Notes under the pieces: model-generated
Told to the model about the DNA's origin: nothing
The model's input: only the letters and a program-made list of their open reading frames with translations
Database searches by the model: none
In this document: in pieces, positions 33,359-47,771 of the stretch
Layout of the letters: each line of letters begins with the position of its first letter
How positions within the stretch are numbered: position 1 is the stretch's first letter
Position numbers and translations under genes: made by a program
Source of the DNA: Salinispira sp.
GTDB lineage: Bacteria; Spirochaetota; Spirochaetia; DSM-27196; Salinispiraceae
Direction: 5' to 3'
Length of the DNA stretch: 64,000 nucleotides
Assembly (NCBI GenBank): GCA_965602015.1
Contig: OZ271918.1
Span: 2,336,001-2,400,000, forward strand

Positions 33359-33361
33359 AAC

Positions 33362-33388
33362 AAAAAAAGCCCCGGCATAAGCCGGGGC
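33362..33388 (-). terminator. Intrinsic terminator of the sigma factor gene
   Basis: GCCCCGGC-TTAT-GCCGGGGC-TTTTTTT on the minus strand. Confidence 0.88.
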
Positions 33389-33409: not shown

Positions 33410-34285
33410 TCAGGCTACATAGGAGGAGAGGTAGCGGCTTCGGGTGGGATGCTGAAGACGTTTGATAGCCTTTTTTTCTATCTGACGGATACGCTCTTTG
33501 GTAAGGTTATATCGGTCGCCGATTTCCTTCAGGCTCATGGGCGCATAGCCGTTGAGACCGAATCGAAACTGGATTATTTCCGCTTCCTTATCGGTGAGGG
33601 TCTCGAGAATTGCATTAATGTCATTCTTGAGAGAGTCCTGCATAACCAAATCTTCAGGGAGGGAGTTCACAGTATCCTCGACGAAATCACTGAGGACAGA
33701 GCTGTCCTTCTCGCGGTAAACCGGGGTTTCAAGGGAGACATGTTCCCGGCTGATGTTGACAAGGTCTGTCACATGCTCTTCTGTCATGTTAAGAGAACGG
33801 GCGATTTCCCTCATTTCTTCGGTTTCACCCATGGAGCCGGAAATACTCTTGCGGACTTTTTCGATCTGGACAAGCTCATTGGCCCGGTTCAGCGGAAGTC
33901 TGATCATTCTGCTTTTTTCGCATATCGCCTTGAGAATAGCCTGGCGAATCCACCATACAGCATAGGAGATAAAGTGAAATCCCTTATCGACGTCGAAACG
34001 CTCTATGGCATTCAGAAGGCCAATGTTTCCCTCGCTGATCAGATCGACCAACGGGAGTCCCTGATTCTGATACTTCTTCGCAACGTTAACAACGAAACGG
34101 AGGTTTGCCTGCACCAGATGGTCCTTGGCAGCCTGCTCGCCGTCCCGGGCTCGGGTCGCTAAATCGACTTCCTGCTCGCGGGTCAGAAGGGGTATACGGT
34201 TTATTTCTTTGAGATATATGGTCAAAATGTTTTCATCGCTGCTTCGGCTTGTGCTGTTGATACGCTTTTCTGATACCTGGCTCAT
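33410..34285 (-). CDS. RNA polymerase sigma70 factor, group 2 / RpoS-like (no region 1.1)
   Basis: Region 1.2 YLKEI.RIPLL, region 2 ANLRFVV..AKKY...DLISEGNIGL..A.ERFD..SYAVWWIRQAI, region 4 LKEIG....LTKERIRQIE; 291 aa from ATG 34285 with SD GGAGG. Confidence 0.93.
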   Translation of the reverse strand: MSQVSEKRINSTSRSSDENILTIYLKEINRIPLLTREQEVDLATRARDGEQAAKDHLVQANLRFVVNVAKKYQNQGLPLVDLISEGNIGLLNAIERFDVDKGFHFISYAVWWIRQAILKAICEKSRMIRLPLNRANELVQIEKVRKSISGSMGETEEMREIARSLNMTEEHVTDLVNISREHVSLETPVYREKDSSVLSDFVEDTVNSLPEDLVMQDSLKNDINAILETLTDKEAEIIQFRFGLNGYAPMSLKEIGDRYNLTKERIRQIEKKAIKRLQHPTRSRYLSSYVA

Positions 34286-34307
34286 TCTGGCCTCCTGCCA
34301 CCATAAA

Positions 34308-34324
34308 AGCAAAAGGCGTGCCAA
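34308..34324 (-). promoter_or_regulatory. Sigma54 (RpoN) -24/-12 promoter of the sigma70-family gene
   Basis: TTGGCACGCCTTTTGCT is an exact match to TGGCACGNNNNTTGCW, with GG-N10-GC spacing, about 23 nt upstream of the start codon. Confidence 0.85.
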
Positions 34325-34376
34325 AAGCAAAATAATTTATCTAACGACCTATCTTTATGCAGTGTAATGATTTATA

Positions 34377-34418
34377 CATATCACACTAAGTGATCACAAT
34401 AATCCCCCCATATCACAA
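34377..34418. promoter_or_regulatory. Candidate upstream activator sequence for a sigma54 enhancer-binding protein
   Basis: ATCACA at 34380, 34393 and 34412; CATATCACA twice, 32 bp apart; TCAC-N5-GTGA and GTGATCAC dyads; about -80 to -120 from the predicted sigma54 start. Confidence 0.45.
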
Positions 34419-34571
34419 TGTGCAATATTGACCCAGCTACCCTCTTACCACCTGCAAGTGGGTTATTTTGATACACAGGCATCAAAGCACTGGGGAATTT
34501 GGGTCATTTCGCCCGCCGACACGGGACATTTCCCGAGGAATCAAAAAAATCACGGGGAAACCCCGAAATTC

Positions 34572-34600
34572 TTGACCAAGATCGGGCCATTTCGTATATT
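34572..34600 (+). promoter_or_regulatory. Sigma70-type promoter of groES
   Basis: TTGACC-N17-TATATT. Confidence 0.65.
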
Positions 34601-34651: not shown

Positions 34652-34918
34652 ATGAATGTACAGCCTTTAGGCGATCGGGTTCTTCTCAAGACCGAAGCCG
34701 GCGAAGAAAAAACATCCGGAGGTCTCTTTATACCCCAGACAGCGCAGGAGAAAACCCAGACTGCCGTGGTCTCTGCCATCGGTGACGATACCGAAACGAT
34801 TACCGTAAAAGCCGGAGACCGGGTAATGTACGACAAGTACGCCGGCACCCAGGTGAAGATCGACGGCGATGATTACCTCATCGTGAGCTTCTCCGATATT
34901 ATTGCCGTAATTAAGTAA
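34652..34918 (+). CDS. groES: Co-chaperonin GroES (monocistronic)
   Basis: MNVQPLGDRVL, KTSGGLFIP.TAQEK, VKAGDRV.YDKYAGT; SD AGGAGG. Confidence 0.96.
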   Translation: MNVQPLGDRVLLKTEAGEEKTSGGLFIPQTAQEKTQTAVVSAIGDDTETITVKAGDRVMYDKYAGTQVKIDGDDYLIVSFSDIIAVIK

Positions 34919-35742: not shown

Positions 35743-37653
35743 CTATTCACCGGCAGCCCCCCTGAAGGGATCATGCTGATGAGGGGGGAACCGACAAATG
35801 GTGAAGTTTTGGAAATCATCCACCAGCGGATTAAACCCCGCGTTGCTATGTGTGGAGCGCGTGGCAATGCCTTGGAAAATCCCTACGGTCTGCCGGGAAA
35901 AGGCCGATGAAATGGCCTCCCAATCGTTGTGATCGGTCAACACGGGGTTGCCGGAGTCGTGATCATCTGTGGGGTTGAGGTCCATGGCCAGGGCAGAGTC
36001 GACGATGCCGTTGCCGTTGAAATCTACCCATACGCTTCCGGTCCTGCCGAGGCCATTTGACTCATCAATTGAGCCTTCGTGAATATCCGCAGAGCTGCCG
36101 TCGGAAAAATCAATTGCGTAATCCGTGCTGTACACCGACCGCGTCAAATCCCTTGTGTAAAAGGCCCCACCGTAATACAGAGTGGCATAGGGGTTTGATT
36201 GCTCATAGTTGAAAACCCGGGAATGCTGGTAGTAGTAATAGCGATCTCCCTCATAATCATCGCCGATCAGGGGCATGCCTGAGTACATGTAGTTCATGAT
36301 GCTAATGTAATTGGGCTTGTAGTTTTCACTTTCATCTCCGCCATGGCCCAGGCCCAGGTTGTGGCCCAGCTCATGCATTATGACATCCGCCTGCCGGTTT
36401 ACCGTGTAGAGCCTCCATTCCTCCGATTCGAATGGATCGATATGCGACGGGGGTATAACCAGGAAGTCGTTGCCGGGCCTCTCTCCCAGTCCGCCGAAGT
36501 ACGGCGAATCGTTCCCCATGACCATAAAATGGAATATCTGACGCTTGTTCACCGGCAGGAAGTCCGCTTTGAGCTGAAAAAAATCCACGTCTCCGTCGTA
36601 GTGAATGCTCCACCCGATGGTTTGGGACCAGGGAAGGGCGTGGCTTTTTCCGTCGAGATTATAGCGCTCGATATCCGGGTGCACCAGTTGGGAGTAGGCC
36701 GAGGTGTCGCCCACATCGAAATGCACCGCAAAATTTCTCCCGTCCGCCGTCTGGTTCGCGAAGGCCTGCTGCACCTTTTCAAGGGCTTCGGGACGGGGAA
36801 AAAGCCCGGGAAAATCCGAGGGCGTGTCTCCCACCATGTAGCTTACATGGACAAAGATGTCCATCACGCCCTGGCGGGCCCCCCAATCGTGGAGGGGCAT
36901 GCCGAGGTATGTTGTGCCCGGCAGTTCATTGGCATCGGGAATTCCGTCGCCGTCGGCATCAGTCTGTGAAAAGACGTCGTTGGCTCCCCCGGGAGTTGCC
37001 CATTCGCTGTAACACCAGTCGGACTGGCGGTTGCTGTCGGTCATATCCGCAACCCGCGCCATGGAAAACCCGCTGTACGGTTCCCCTGGGTAGGATTCAT
37101 ATATCAGACCGTCTCCATTCCAGTGAGCGCTGCTGACAGCGGCGATTTCATTCTCCCCGAATTTAACCAGATCAATAATCTCCCCGCGGTGACTGAGTTC
37201 GAGGAATCCGCTGCTGATCCAGTAAAAAGACGGGGCAAGATTATTGGGGGTAAAAATATTCTCATCACCGGGATAATCCTGGCTGTGCACCCGGTTTCGG
37301 ACCACCACATATTCGCCGGGATGGACAATCCGCGAAGTAAAACCGCCGAAATCCACCGGATTGCTTGCACCCATGCTGCTCTGGTCGTAGACCCGAATGC
37401 TGATATCCGCTAAATTCACCGGGCTCTGGCCGGAGTTATACAACTCGATCCACGTCGCCGGAACCATTTTGCCGTCCACATTATACCGCGTGTTATCAGC
37501 GCTAAACTCACTGATTAACAGACCATTGCCGAATTCCTCCGGTGGTTGATTATTGAGGGGATTGCAGGAGGACAGGCCGATAAAAAGCCACAGAGTCAGA
37601 AGGGCGAAAAACAGTACACTGGGTTTTCCGGGATTAACAGTACGCGTGCTCAT
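35743..37653 (-). CDS. Lipoprotein: lamin-tail-like domain plus metzincin zinc metallopeptidase
   Basis: Lipobox LSS-C; LLISEF...WIELYN.G...VNL (LTD-like); DADGDGIPD; HELGHNLGLGH; Met-turn SIMNY. Start at MSTRT (37653) follows a TACAAT box. Confidence 0.82.
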   Translation of the reverse strand: MSTRTVNPGKPSVLFFALLTLWLFIGLSSCNPLNNQPPEEFGNGLLISEFSADNTRYNVDGKMVPATWIELYNSGQSPVNLADISIRVYDQSSMGASNPVDFGGFTSRIVHPGEYVVVRNRVHSQDYPGDENIFTPNNLAPSFYWISSGFLELSHRGEIIDLVKFGENEIAAVSSAHWNGDGLIYESYPGEPYSGFSMARVADMTDSNRQSDWCYSEWATPGGANDVFSQTDADGDGIPDANELPGTTYLGMPLHDWGARQGVMDIFVHVSYMVGDTPSDFPGLFPRPEALEKVQQAFANQTADGRNFAVHFDVGDTSAYSQLVHPDIERYNLDGKSHALPWSQTIGWSIHYDGDVDFFQLKADFLPVNKRQIFHFMVMGNDSPYFGGLGERPGNDFLVIPPSHIDPFESEEWRLYTVNRQADVIMHELGHNLGLGHGGDESENYKPNYISIMNYMYSGMPLIGDDYEGDRYYYYQHSRVFNYEQSNPYATLYYGGAFYTRDLTRSVYSTDYAIDFSDGSSADIHEGSIDESNGLGRTGSVWVDFNGNGIVDSALAMDLNPTDDHDSGNPVLTDHNDWEAISSAFSRQTVGIFQGIATRSTHSNAGFNPLVDDFQNFTICRFPPHQHDPFRGAAGE

Positions 37654-37743
37654 ATGGTGCATTGTAGCCGTAAACCGTCGATAAAACCAGATTGAATCAG
37701 CTACCGGTTGAGCGCATTGTACCCCTAGCTTGAGTCATATAGT

Positions 37744-44106: not shown

Positions 44107-45456
44107 CTAGTCCTGGAGACCGTACTCGTTTATTTTGCGGTGCAGGGTCTTTCGGCCGATGCCCAGTACTTCGGCGCTTTTGCTCTTGTTTCCCCGCTCG
44201 GACAACAGGGTTTCTTTGATAATCTGCCGCTCCGCCTCCTGAAGGGAAGCGCCGAGGCGGACCCGGATGTATTCGCCGTCGCTGGCCCCGCCGATGTGGG
44301 GAGGCAGGTCATCGGCGGTAATAAAATCGCCCCTGCTCATCACCACCGCAGACTCCATTGTGTTCCTCAGCTCCCGCACATTCCCGGGCCAGTCGTAGTT
44401 GTACAACGCGGCCTTCGCCTTGTTGTCCACCCCGAGAATCTGGCGGTTGTTTTCTTCGGCGAACTCTTTGAGGAAATGACTGATCAGCATCGGGACATCG
44501 TCCTTCCGTTCTCTCAACGGCGGAACGTGAATGTTTACCACATTCAGCCGATAATAGAGATCCTCCCGGAAATTTCCCTCCTCGATCTCCTGCTTCAGAT
44601 CCCGGTTGGTGGCGGCGATGATTCGGGCGTCCACGTCTACCGTCGATTCTCCCCCCACCCGCTCGAAACGCTTTTCCTGGAGTACCCGGAGGATTTTTAT
44701 TTGAACGGACTGGTTGATTTCCCCGATTTCATCGAGGAATATGCTGCCCAAATGAGCGAGCTCGAAACGTCCCCGTTTACGGTTCAGCGCGCCGGTAAAC
44801 GCGCCTTTTTCATGGCCGAAGAGTTCGCTTTCCAAAAGGCTTTCGGAGAGGGCGGCACAATGCACCTTGATGAAGGACTTTTCCCTCCTGGTGCTCATAT
44901 TATGAATGGCGTCGGCGACCAGTTCCTTGCCAACCCCGCTCTCGCCGGTTATGAGCACGGAGGCCTTGGTCGGGGCGACCTGGCTGATAAGCTCCATTAT
45001 TTTCCGCATTTGCGGACTTTTTCCGATGATTATATTGCTCTGACGGCGCTGCTCGAGCTCTTCCTGGAGAGCCCGATGCTGGAGGATGAGCTCCCGGCTG
45101 GCCAGGGCCCGCTTGACCAGCATGGAAAGCCGGTCGAGATTAACCGGCTTGGTGAGGAAATCAAAGGCGCCGTTTCTCATGGCCTGGACTGCTGTTTCGA
45201 TTGTTCCGTGGCCCGTCAGGATTATCACCGAAACGCTGGGCCAGTCGCTGACGATTCGGCGCAACAGATCGTCTCCGCCCATGCGGGGCATTTTGAGATC
45301 GCTGATCACCAGGTCGATTTCATCGCTTTCCATTATTTCGATAGCCGAAAGCCCGTCCTCGGCGAGCACGGTTTCATACCCGTCCAGCTCCAGACTTTTC
45401 GCCAGGCCTTCGCGGATATTTTTCTCGTCGTCCACTACGAGTATCCGAAATTTCAT
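44107..45456 (-). CDS. rrp2: Sigma54-dependent response regulator (NtrC family; Rrp2-like)
   Basis: REC (VVDDE, SDLKMP), AAA+ with GESGVGKE, ESELFGHEKGAFTGA, FREDLYYRLNV, WPGNVREL, Fis-type HTH. Symbol assigned by recalled synteny. Confidence 0.9.
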   Translation of the reverse strand: MKFRILVVDDEKNIREGLAKSLELDGYETVLAEDGLSAIEIMESDEIDLVISDLKMPRMGGDDLLRRIVSDWPSVSVIILTGHGTIETAVQAMRNGAFDFLTKPVNLDRLSMLVKRALASRELILQHRALQEELEQRRQSNIIIGKSPQMRKIMELISQVAPTKASVLITGESGVGKELVADAIHNMSTRREKSFIKVHCAALSESLLESELFGHEKGAFTGALNRKRGRFELAHLGSIFLDEIGEINQSVQIKILRVLQEKRFERVGGESTVDVDARIIAATNRDLKQEIEEGNFREDLYYRLNVVNIHVPPLRERKDDVPMLISHFLKEFAEENNRQILGVDNKAKAALYNYDWPGNVRELRNTMESAVVMSRGDFITADDLPPHIGGASDGEYIRVRLGASLQEAERQIIKETLLSERGNKSKSAEVLGIGRKTLHRKINEYGLQD

Positions 45457-46625
45457 ACGTCCTCCACTGTGACATCGCTAATGAGGTTTTGCTGACCAGG
45501 AGGAGTGGGAAAGGACAGGGTGAAGGTGGTGCCCTTGCCTTCCTGGCTGATTACCGAAATCTCGCCCCGGTGTTCCTTAACTATTTTATAGACGATGGTC
45601 AGTCCAATTCCGCTACCGAATTCCTTCGTAGTGAAATACGGTTCGAAAATCTTGTTCAGCACTTCTTCGCTCATGCCGCTGCCCGTATCGATGATCCGCA
45701 GAAGCACCTCGTCCCCCCGGTAGCGGGTAGTTACCGTCAGGGTGCCCCCGTCGGGCATGGCATTGAGGGCGTTTTTGACGATGTTGAGAATCGCCTGCTT
45801 GATGAATTTATCGTCCAACAGAATGTGGGGAATATCGACCTGATAATCCTCCACCAACTCTACCCCGCCCTCGGAGATTTCGTATTTCATAAAATCCATG
45901 ATTTCATGAAGCAGGGCGTTTAAATCGTGATTTGACAAATTGATATCCATGGGCCGAACGGCGAAGAGAAAATCCATGACGATGCGGTTGAGCCGCTCAA
46001 CCTCTTCATTGACGATATCCAGGTACCCGCTGATATCCGAGGAGGGCACGCTTTTGGCTGCGGCCAGCATCTTTTGCATGAGCTGAATATGTATGCCTAT
46101 GCTACCGAGGGGATTTTTAATTTCATGGGCCACCCCGGCGGCGAGGGTGGTGAGGCTCGCAAGGCTCTCCGCCCGGCGGAGACGGGCTTCTTTCCAGCGA
46201 CGTTCTGACACATCCTCCACATGCACAACATTTCCCCGGACCCGCCCGCGGCGCACCAACGGCATAATGCTGAACGAAAGAATCCGGGTCACCCCGGGGC
46301 TGTCGAGGGTAAACTCCCGGTCGCGGATGCTTTCTTCGTTTAATATGGTGTGGCGGATGAACTCGGCTATATCGCCGTCTCCGATAACCTGCCATATCAC
46401 CTTTTCGAAAAAATCATAGTCCCTGAAGGGGACCGTGCGCTCGGCGGCCTTGTTGCAGAGAATCAGTTTGTTGTACTGGTCGGCGACGATAACCCCGTCG
46501 GTGAGCGAGTCCAGGACCACTTCCATCTGTTCGTTTTCCCTGGCAAGGTCGTAAATAAGGGCGTGAATTTGCTGTTTGTCGAGCTTTGAAATTTTATTGA
46601 GGGCCCGCTGGATAAACTTTCGCAT
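45453..46625 (-). CDS. hk2: Cytoplasmic PAS-domain sensor histidine kinase (Hk2-like)
   Basis: No TM; PAS-like VLDSLTDGVIV; AHEIKNPL H-box; NIVKNA, DTGSG, IFEPYFTTK, GSGIGL; overlaps the regulator. Symbol assigned by recalled synteny. Confidence 0.88.
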   Translation of the reverse strand: MRKFIQRALNKISKLDKQQIHALIYDLARENEQMEVVLDSLTDGVIVADQYNKLILCNKAAERTVPFRDYDFFEKVIWQVIGDGDIAEFIRHTILNEESIRDREFTLDSPGVTRILSFSIMPLVRRGRVRGNVVHVEDVSERRWKEARLRRAESLASLTTLAAGVAHEIKNPLGSIGIHIQLMQKMLAAAKSVPSSDISGYLDIVNEEVERLNRIVMDFLFAVRPMDINLSNHDLNALLHEIMDFMKYEISEGGVELVEDYQVDIPHILLDDKFIKQAILNIVKNALNAMPDGGTLTVTTRYRGDEVLLRIIDTGSGMSEEVLNKIFEPYFTTKEFGSGIGLTIVYKIVKEHRGEISVISQEGKGTTFTLSFPTPPGQQNLISDVTVEDV

Positions 46626-46631
46626 ACTGTG

Positions 46632-47771
46632 TCAAATATACCCAAGTTCCAGAACTGAGGCTACGGGTATATTGTAGGTTTCCATCCGGAAATGCATGGC
46701 TTCGAGTTTCTGCTGTAGCTGATACATCTCCTCGCTGTGAAGATGGGAAATCTGTATTTCTTCCAGACAGAGGGCGATGAGTTCAATGAGGACTGAACGG
46801 TCGCTGCCGATAATCGCCGCGAGCTGATCTCTTGCGTCGATGCTCTTTTCCCGAAGCAGGGTGAACATCAGTTCGATTTGCTGCCGGCGCTCTCCCAGAC
46901 CCCCGGGGCCCGCGTCGATAAAAAACGAATGCAGCGATGAGTAATCATCGGCGTGTTCCTCCCGGTAAATCCGCCGAATCACATCACGGTGGGCCCGGGG
47001 ACTTCGGGGCGCAAAGCGATAGGTCCTGAGGCGGCTTCGCAGGGTCGGTATGATGGCGGCCGGGCGCTTGGTGAGAAGCATGAAATACACCGATGCCGGG
47101 GGTTCTTCGAGGATCTTCAGAAAGGCGTTGCGGGCTGCCTCGTTCATCTCGTGGGCGTTTTCAATAATGATGGTCTTGTTGACCGCCGAATCCGCCGTAT
47201 GAGCCCAATAGGTGGCGCGCCGTATCATATTAATACTAATGCCGTCGGAGGGCAGCAGCTTTTGGATATCGGCGCACAGCTCGAGGACCTTGTTTGTATC
47301 CGGCGCCTGAGGCGAGGAGAGTTCCGGATGGGCCAATTCAATAGCTTCTTCTAGTTTGCCGATGAGGCTGGCCGCCTTCTGCAGTTTTTTTTCATCATCC
47401 TGCCACAGAACCGGATCAAAGCGGCGGATTAACTTCTTTACATTCCGATAGAAAAGATAGTACAGCGGCTTTTCGCTTTGCCTTTGGAGCATGACCGCCG
47501 ATGCGCGAATTTCCTGATAAAAATACCGGCTCCCCATCATCAGCAGGTAGGGACTGTCCAGGAGCCGGTGTTGGGCACATGATGGGCATTGGCAGGACCA
47601 GGGGGCTCCGTCATTGCGGCAGCCGAGTCCGCGGGCAAGTTCCAGGGCGGCGCTGAGCTTGGCGCTGTGTTGTTCACCGCTAAACAGCATCGAATGTGGA
47701 AGCTTGCCAGCCTGCAAATCTCCGATAATCCGGTTTTTGATCGGATCCTGATGAAGCAGATTTTCAAACAT
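46632..47771 (-). CDS. holB: DNA polymerase III delta' subunit-like (degenerate AAA+)
   Basis: LPHSMLFSG, C....C.C..C zinc module, ARNAFLKILEEPP, IIPTLRSR. Confidence 0.82.
   Translation of the reverse strand: MFENLLHQDPIKNRIIGDLQAGKLPHSMLFSGEQHSAKLSAALELARGLGCRNDGAPWSCQCPSCAQHRLLDSPYLLMMGSRYFYQEIRASAVMLQRQSEKPLYYLFYRNVKKLIRRFDPVLWQDDEKKLQKAASLIGKLEEAIELAHPELSSPQAPDTNKVLELCADIQKLLPSDGISINMIRRATYWAHTADSAVNKTIIIENAHEMNEAARNAFLKILEEPPASVYFMLLTKRPAAIIPTLRSRLRTYRFAPRSPRAHRDVIRRIYREEHADDYSSLHSFFIDAGPGGLGERRQQIELMFTLLREKSIDARDQLAAIIGSDRSVLIELIALCLEEIQISHLHSEEMYQLQQKLEAMHFRMETYNIPVASVLELGYI

Follow-up and report, generated by a model that had tools for sequence, protein, structure and literature searches.

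In a 64,000-nucleotide stretch of Salinispira sp. DNA (the window), a group-2 sigma70 gene at 33410..34285 on the minus strand stands behind an apparent sigma-54 promoter. The question that this locus raises is whether it represents the cascade known from Borrelia, in which RpoN drives RpoS, or a different one; an earlier note had called the sigma RpoS-like and its control Borrelia-style. As in the Hk2-Rrp2-RpoN-RpoS system of Borrelia burgdorferi, according to the accessible parts of its descriptions (PMC1976401, PMC4014564, PMC12472547), the box precedes a group-2 sigma gene and rpoN is present. In the 3.87-Mb genome that holds the window (G000), we found rpoN at G000:C1:3662651-3664012, over the TIGR02395 cut-off, which supplies the gene that the earlier note had presupposed.

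The sigma gene and the box in front of it

Based on the open reading frame, Pfam domains and trees, the gene encodes 291 aa from ATG 34285 to the stop at 33412-33410, with sigma70 regions 1.2, 2, 3 and 4 present and region 1.1 absent. TTG 34330 was dismissed as a start, 34285 being the true one. The proteobacterial RpoS model TIGR02394 gave 262 bits, under its cut-off of 378.7, and was outscored by RpoD models. We denote this groES-linked lineage clade A; groES lies near the sigma gene in 69 of 80 related loci. In the window, groES (34652..34918, plus strand, from the ORF and promoter scan) is divergent, with a sigma70-type promoter-like site at 34572-34600. Considering that an intrinsic terminator with an 8-bp GC stem and a U-tract follows the stop (33359..33388, minus strand; hairpin prediction, z -3.6), that groES upstream is divergent and that ppdK downstream has a separate start, the sigma gene is most likely monocistronic, as had been proposed. 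Between groES and dinG, the window also encodes a predicted lipoprotein of 639 aa (35743-37662), in which a lamin-tail domain is combined with the HExxH motif of metalloproteases.

By sequence match, the sigma-54 -24/-12 box TGGCACG-CCTT-TTGCT lies at 34308..34323 on the minus strand, with the GG at 34322/34321 and the GC at 34310/34309, upstream of the SD AGGAGG (34296-34291), in agreement with the element originally described. From the -12 spacing, the transcription start is predicted at about 34297, followed by the SD (34291..34298 together), with a leader of about 12 nt. This tight layout of box and SD recurs in many orthologues; a spacing of 14 nt, as reported for Borrelia rpoS, would place the transcription start of the window sigma inside its SD. 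The exact pattern occurs once in the window against 0.01 expected (1 match in 100 shuffles) and four times in the genome, namely at the window sigma, a second group-2 sigma gene, an hsp20 pair and one site without a clear gene. Downstream of this last box (L264, G000:C1:154774, minus strand), no ORF of at least 70 aa starts within 260 bp, and possibly a small RNA or short gene is located there. Elsewhere in the genome (G000:C1, about 1720000-1742000 and 3440000-3456000), near-identical short repeats containing TTGGCATGGAGTTTGCT or TTGTCACGGTT[CT]TTGC stand before many unrelated small genes and look like gene-cassette arrays or a repeated element mimicking the sigma-54 box.

The orthologue set comprised 110 loci with 66-100% identity, 30 from 99 genomes of the order (one being the window) and 80 from GTDB. 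The box GG[CT]A[CT][AG]-N4-TTGC was found directly before the SD in 107 of the 110 (91 distinct), and the other three loci are cut by contig ends, so the -24/-12 element that the earlier note suggested seeking upstream of orthologues is indeed there. Across orthologues, the GG and GC are invariant (GG-N10-GC), and the flanks and the inner four bases vary. In a wider phylum panel, the box reached at least 12 bits in 23 of 35 clade-A loci, was weak in 5 and was missing in 7, which are deep-branching families or duplicate copies; genome G252 has Rrp2 and rpoN with the clade-A box absent. None of 16 paralogue loci taken as controls (from clade C and two others) had a box scoring at least 12. Related genomes are non-independent samples for all of these conservation counts. 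That the box is a chance match to the consensus has virtually no probability, considering its fixed position across the 91 distinct orthologous regions, the 0.01 expected per window, and the held-out palindrome and hsp20 results described below.

Upstream palindromes, co-marked genes and the likely activator

Upstream of the box, two 17-bp palindromes with the consensus TGGGTCA-W3-TGACCCA stand 40 bp apart and are predicted enhancer sites. The proximal copy, TGGGTCA-ATA-TTGCACA, is centred at -130 (34419..34435, matrix score 18.0) and the distal copy, TGTATCA-AAA-TAACCCA, at -170 (34459..34475, score 17.7), and an uncertain, weak third site follows in phase at -211 (34500..34516, score 6.5). 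The spacer towards the promoter (34324..34400) is AT-rich, with 75% AT in the 60 bp before the GG, and is likely bendable for looping; across orthologue loci, the IHF consensus in the spacer was not in excess over shuffles. In the genome scan, the pair at the window sigma was the only one with the 40-bp type of spacing. This spacing is kept in most orthologues, whose centres peak at -120 to -140 and -160 to -180, with a strong third palindrome near -206 to -220 in some, and the palindromes keep their distance from the box also in loci whose groES lies about 1 kb off. When the matrix was trained on half of the orthologue loci, a second-best palindrome of at least 8 bits was found in 40 of the 43 held-out loci compared with 2 of 430 shuffles. 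In the wider panel, 24 of 35 clade-A loci had a palindrome of at least 12, and a 1.1-Mb treponeme-type genome (G186) had the box with a weak palindrome (8.0).

Genome-wide, 23 of 3276 genes from a crude prediction on G000 had a box of at least 12 bits, and 4 of these also had a palindrome of at least 12: the window sigma, the hsp20 pair (one locus), a single hsp20 and an M48 protease, presumably HtpX-type (the latter three loci being L260, L261 and L262). The four best palindrome sites were the two at the window sigma and two before the hsp20 pair. The top rank of the window sigma is partly circular because both matrices were trained on clade-A promoters, whereas the hsp20 result is free of this. 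In relatives, 30 top hsp20 loci from 39 genomes were compared; 28 had the box and 27 the box and the palindrome, and the Borrelia-type hsp20 locus in that set had neither. NtrC/ZraR-type enhancer-dependent sigma-54 promoters carry paired 17-bp palindromes 120-180 bp upstream, and the window promoter resembles them in its paired palindromes and in a Fis-type HTH activator, with a different site sequence; it differs from them in a dedicated sigma and hsp20 regulon conserved across the class. A sigma-54 input to heat-shock genes is also known from the ibpB and rpoH P6 promoters of E. coli.

The window sigma is the orthologue of Treponema denticola TDE0937, which likewise lies beside groES; the published TDE0937 primers match the clade-A locus L112 with 0 and 1 mismatch, and L112 has the same box and palindromes. 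In the available portion of PMC2965109, TDE0937 is induced 2.8-, 21.8- and 14.0-fold and the hsp20 gene TDE1029 9.5-, 8.5- and 6.7-fold by heat, oxygen and osmotic downshift, respectively, and a role of TDE0937 as stress regulator is put forward by its authors. The T. denticola orthologue thus behaves like a general-stress gene, not a host-adaptation switch. In the parts of PMC2965109 and PMC12070737 available to us, the T. denticola literature gives the induction of TDE0937, names no promoter and calls Rrp2 'unstudied'.

A main promoter of the sigma70 type, with the box and palindromes acting negatively as a sigma-54/Rrp2 roadblock or serving the divergent groES, would fit the very short predicted leader and the intergenic region common to groES and the window sigma, and a sigma70 transcript is also known for Borrelia rpoS, as far as PMC12472547 was accessible. 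However, the minus strand contains a single weak sigma70-like site, which lies some 300 bp upstream and is no better than expected by chance. The palindrome positions follow the box, not groES, the same layout stands at hsp20 genes without groES, and the palindrome distance and 40-bp phasing fit an activator, which together make a sigma70-type main promoter quite improbable.

The likely activator of the sigma-54 promoter is the Rrp2 orthologue at 44107..45456 (minus strand), identified by its REC-AAA+-Fis HTH domains and an orthologue search, with GAFTGA at residue 218. Directly beside it, the Hk2 orthologue (45453..46625, minus strand; PAS-HisKA-HATPase) is the predicted cognate sensor from its domains and gene order. 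Both belong to the order murG-cvpA-holB-hk2-rrp2 at 49441-44107, so the PAS kinase and GAFTGA-intact activator previously noted behind murG-cvpA-holB are in place, and the Borrelia-type locus L182 has the same order, orthologous Hk2 and Rrp2 lying in the murG-cvpA-holB operon in the Borrelia cascade as well. The window activator is 55% identical to the sole such protein of the Borrelia-type genomes G459 and G489. A search of 37 genomes returned orthologues with 51-86% identity in 32 of them, and these keep the Fis/NtrC-type recognition helix as IGRKTLHRK or something close to it. For T. denticola Hk2, oxygen sensing through the PAS domain is reported in the accessible part of PMC12070737.

Judging from the gene arrangements and activator counts of related genomes, the Rrp2 orthologue likely binds the 17-bp sites and activates the window sigma. 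It is the only sigma-54 activator found in G218, a 10-contig assembly with sites before both its sigma and hsp20 (G147 has a second, partial activator domain); in G160, G151 and G110, rrp2 directly precedes the clade-A sigma, and in 34 of 80 loci it is within 10 kb of it. Since G000 itself encodes eight sigma-54 activators, the assignment there rests on other genomes and synteny. These eight activators would also allow that the sigma-54 promoter is real and the palindromes are read by another enhancer-binding protein, and gel shifts showed no binding of Borrelia Rrp2 to the DNA ahead of rpoS, as given in the available part of PMC1976401. Nevertheless, the upstream regions of Borrelia rpoS carry no 17-bp palindrome (0/5), which would explain the negative gel shift, and considering this along with G218 and the three genomes in which rrp2 adjoins the sigma, a different binder is unlikely.

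A 16.8-bit palindrome also covers the holB stop and hk2 start of the window (46628-46644), likewise in G096, an overlap confined to the genus of the window, and a site stands upstream in G160. Autoregulation of hk2-rrp2 through the 17-bp site is not general, with no site of at least 8 in the other 26 of 29 hk2 loci. In five Borrelia-type genomes, Rrp2-type sites numbered 6, 5, 0, 5 and 2 compared with 0, 0, 0, 0 and 2 in controls, and the 16 such loci inspected were mostly intragenic, none of them having a sigma-54 box in the right place. Within one Borrelia-type genus, three genomes have an identical intergenic Rrp2-type palindrome that lacks a sigma-54 box (L239, L243 and L250).

We consider it likely that the box and palindromes form an enhancer-dependent promoter, activated by the Rrp2 orthologue, for a general-stress sigma together with hsp20 and the M48 protease. 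A stress signal would act on Hk2, which would phosphorylate Rrp2, and phosphorylated Rrp2 would bind the phased sites at -130 and -170. Looping across the AT-rich spacer would bring it to the sigma-54 holoenzyme to open the promoter, and the resulting short-leader mRNA would yield the alternative sigma, while hsp20 and the protease would be fired in parallel. The start site, sigma-54 dependence, Rrp2 as the binder, the signal and the target genes of the sigma are what we infer in this scheme.

The lineage of the window sigma

If the window sigma were the RpoS of a Borrelia-type Rrp2-RpoN-RpoS cascade, the matching regulators and promoter type, and a group-2 sigma of similar length, would be expected, and these are present. 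However, the sequence relationships and gene order assign Borrelia RpoS to another gene. In a search of 401 genomes of the phylum, all 16 Borrelia-type genomes (family f15) gave only two matches to the window sigma, the best at E about 1e-61; since this best match is RpoD, clade A is absent from Borrelia-type genomes. Their second sigma follows flgG-flgI-flgJ and precedes a polysaccharide deacetylase and tsaD, and the order flgG-flgI-flgJ-rpoS is given for B. burgdorferi in the accessible part of PMC1976401. By tree and gene order, the counterpart in G000 is a clade-B paralogue after flgF-flgG (G000:C1:1854852-1855715, minus strand; locus L263, 1854852-1855752), with deacetylase and tsaD on the other side, whereas the window sigma lies between groES and ppdK. 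Borrelia-type RpoS scored 165-171 bits against this flgG-linked paralogue and 147-149 bits against the window sigma. The two grouped in three trees, with support of 99 and 100 in quick trees (the former omitting L184, a duplicate) and 96/92 in the LG+G4 tree. Forcing Borrelia RpoS into clade A was rejected by the AU test (p-AU 0.007, with 13 of 49 rows, being long branches, FliA and near-duplicates, omitted). The window sigma is therefore of another lineage than Borrelia RpoS, and it is very unlikely that it acts as the RpoS of a Borrelia-type cascade. Of the earlier reading, the label 'RpoS-like' falls.

The clade-B genes have promoters of their own. At L263, the sigma-54 box is exact and is accompanied at -126 by a perfect palindrome, TGTATA-N6-TATACA, and 29 of 30 clade-B loci have a box of at least 12 bits (two with AG for GG). 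The 17-bp palindrome was found in 0 of 30 clade-B loci, Borrelia-type rpoS upstream regions included, which agrees with the lack of Rrp2 binding ahead of Borrelia rpoS in the available part of PMC1976401. A different palindrome, TGTATA-N6-TATACA with up to 2 mismatches, is present at 16 of the 25 clade-B loci outside Borrelia-type genomes, compared with none of the 5 Borrelia-type loci and 4 of 91 in clade A, the motif being derived from the same sequences as were counted. A GAF-domain sigma-54 activator near rpoD, with GAFTDA for GAFTGA (L295:1903-3423 = G000:C1:1427903-1429423), occurs in 20 of 43 genomes, and every one of these 20 has a clade-B sigma; it occurs in 0 of 5 Borrelia-type genomes, and in 5 further clade-B genomes it was not found with the query used. 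As a hypothesis, with kinship among the genomes limiting their independence, this activator would drive the clade-B sigma through TGTATA-N6-TATACA. In the genus matched by the TDE0937 primers, L122 and L142 hold a diverged clade-B sigma with AG at the -24 GG and perfect 18-bp palindromes; RpoS homologues are said to be missing in T. denticola in the accessible part of PMC2965109. Clade C (G000:C1:1638870-1639940) is another conserved lineage of group-2 sigmas, the third here, and has no sigma-54 box; lists of T. pallidum sigma genes are published (PMC8525777, seen in part).

The best 8 non-spirochaete matches to the window sigma in PLSDB were Bacteroidota sigmas (41-47% identity, nearly full length), and signatures NLRFVV and FISYAVWWIRQ are common to both groups. 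Clade A was sister to five sequences, four from Bacteroidota and one from Gemmatimonadota and all from one collection, with 97/95 in the LG+G4 tree and 94 in a quick mixture-model tree with three of them. The window sigma appears to group with Bacteroidota RpoD/SigA-type sigmas at that support; the AU test does not reject a clade of spirochaete A and B sigmas only (p-AU 0.15). Their representative, WP_002561589.1 (annotated RpoD/SigA), is 46% identical to the window sigma over 271 aa and of the same size, and from its size and annotation it is probably a housekeeping sigma. The window sigma, unlike a primary sigma, is accessory and stands beside a normal RpoD. Bacteroidota primary sigmas are described without region 1.1 and with a TAnnTTTG element (-7/-33 promoter) in the available part of PMC12632263. 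This element was ruled out as that of the window sigma, given its non-enrichment in G000 (89 compared with 104 shuffled).

Two probable sigma-54 cascades in spirochaetes

The locus differs from the Borrelia cascade in a target sigma of a different lineage, absent from Borrelia-type genomes, in conserved enhancer-type palindromes predicted before it, and in co-marked chaperone and protease genes. Activation of Borrelia rpoS, in the portions of PMC1976401, PMC4014564 and PMC12472547 available, is enhancer-independent and depends on BosR. The proposal of a Borrelia-style cascade was therefore half right: a sigma-54-to-sigma cascade extends beyond Borrelia across most Spirochaetia examined, and its conservation strengthens the idea of an ancestral one, but its sigma here is not RpoS. 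Full-text literature searches, covering the relevant papers in part, returned no sigma-54 promoter for a clade-A sigma and no Rrp2 site. The parts, namely sigma-54, an enhancer, a two-component activator and a sigma cascade, are all of known kinds. Since the promoter layout is common to small heat-shock genes and most related spirochaetes, we read the locus as a likely stress switch, run by the Rrp2 counterpart, in a free-living-type spirochaete.

On this evidence, spirochaetes probably have two sigma-54-to-sigma cascades of old origin. More tentatively, and with the odds somewhat against it, these may be ancestral parallel cascades, with Hk2/Rrp2 on TGGGTCA-N3-TGACCCA for the stress sigma and hsp20, and the GAF activator on TGTATA-N6-TATACA for the RpoS counterpart; the stress sigma would be, on the spirochaete side, sister to the housekeeping sigma of Bacteroidota, and in Borrelia it would have disappeared along with both enhancers and the GAF activator. 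Such losses would leave Rrp2 firing rpoS without a binding site, which would explain the enhancer independence and the need for BosR, if true.

For Rrp2, called unstudied in Treponema and with an unexplained DNA-binding role in Borrelia, the analysis gives a concrete candidate motif and a target list of the stress sigma, hsp20 and the HtpX-like protease. It also offers a way to explain how stress, as is known, induces TDE0937 in a group that lacks RpoH, and corrects the natural assumption that a sigma-54-driven spirochaete sigma is 'RpoS'. In the ancestral two-cascade reading, the Lyme-disease switch would be recast as what is left, in reduced and probably rewired form, of an older system.
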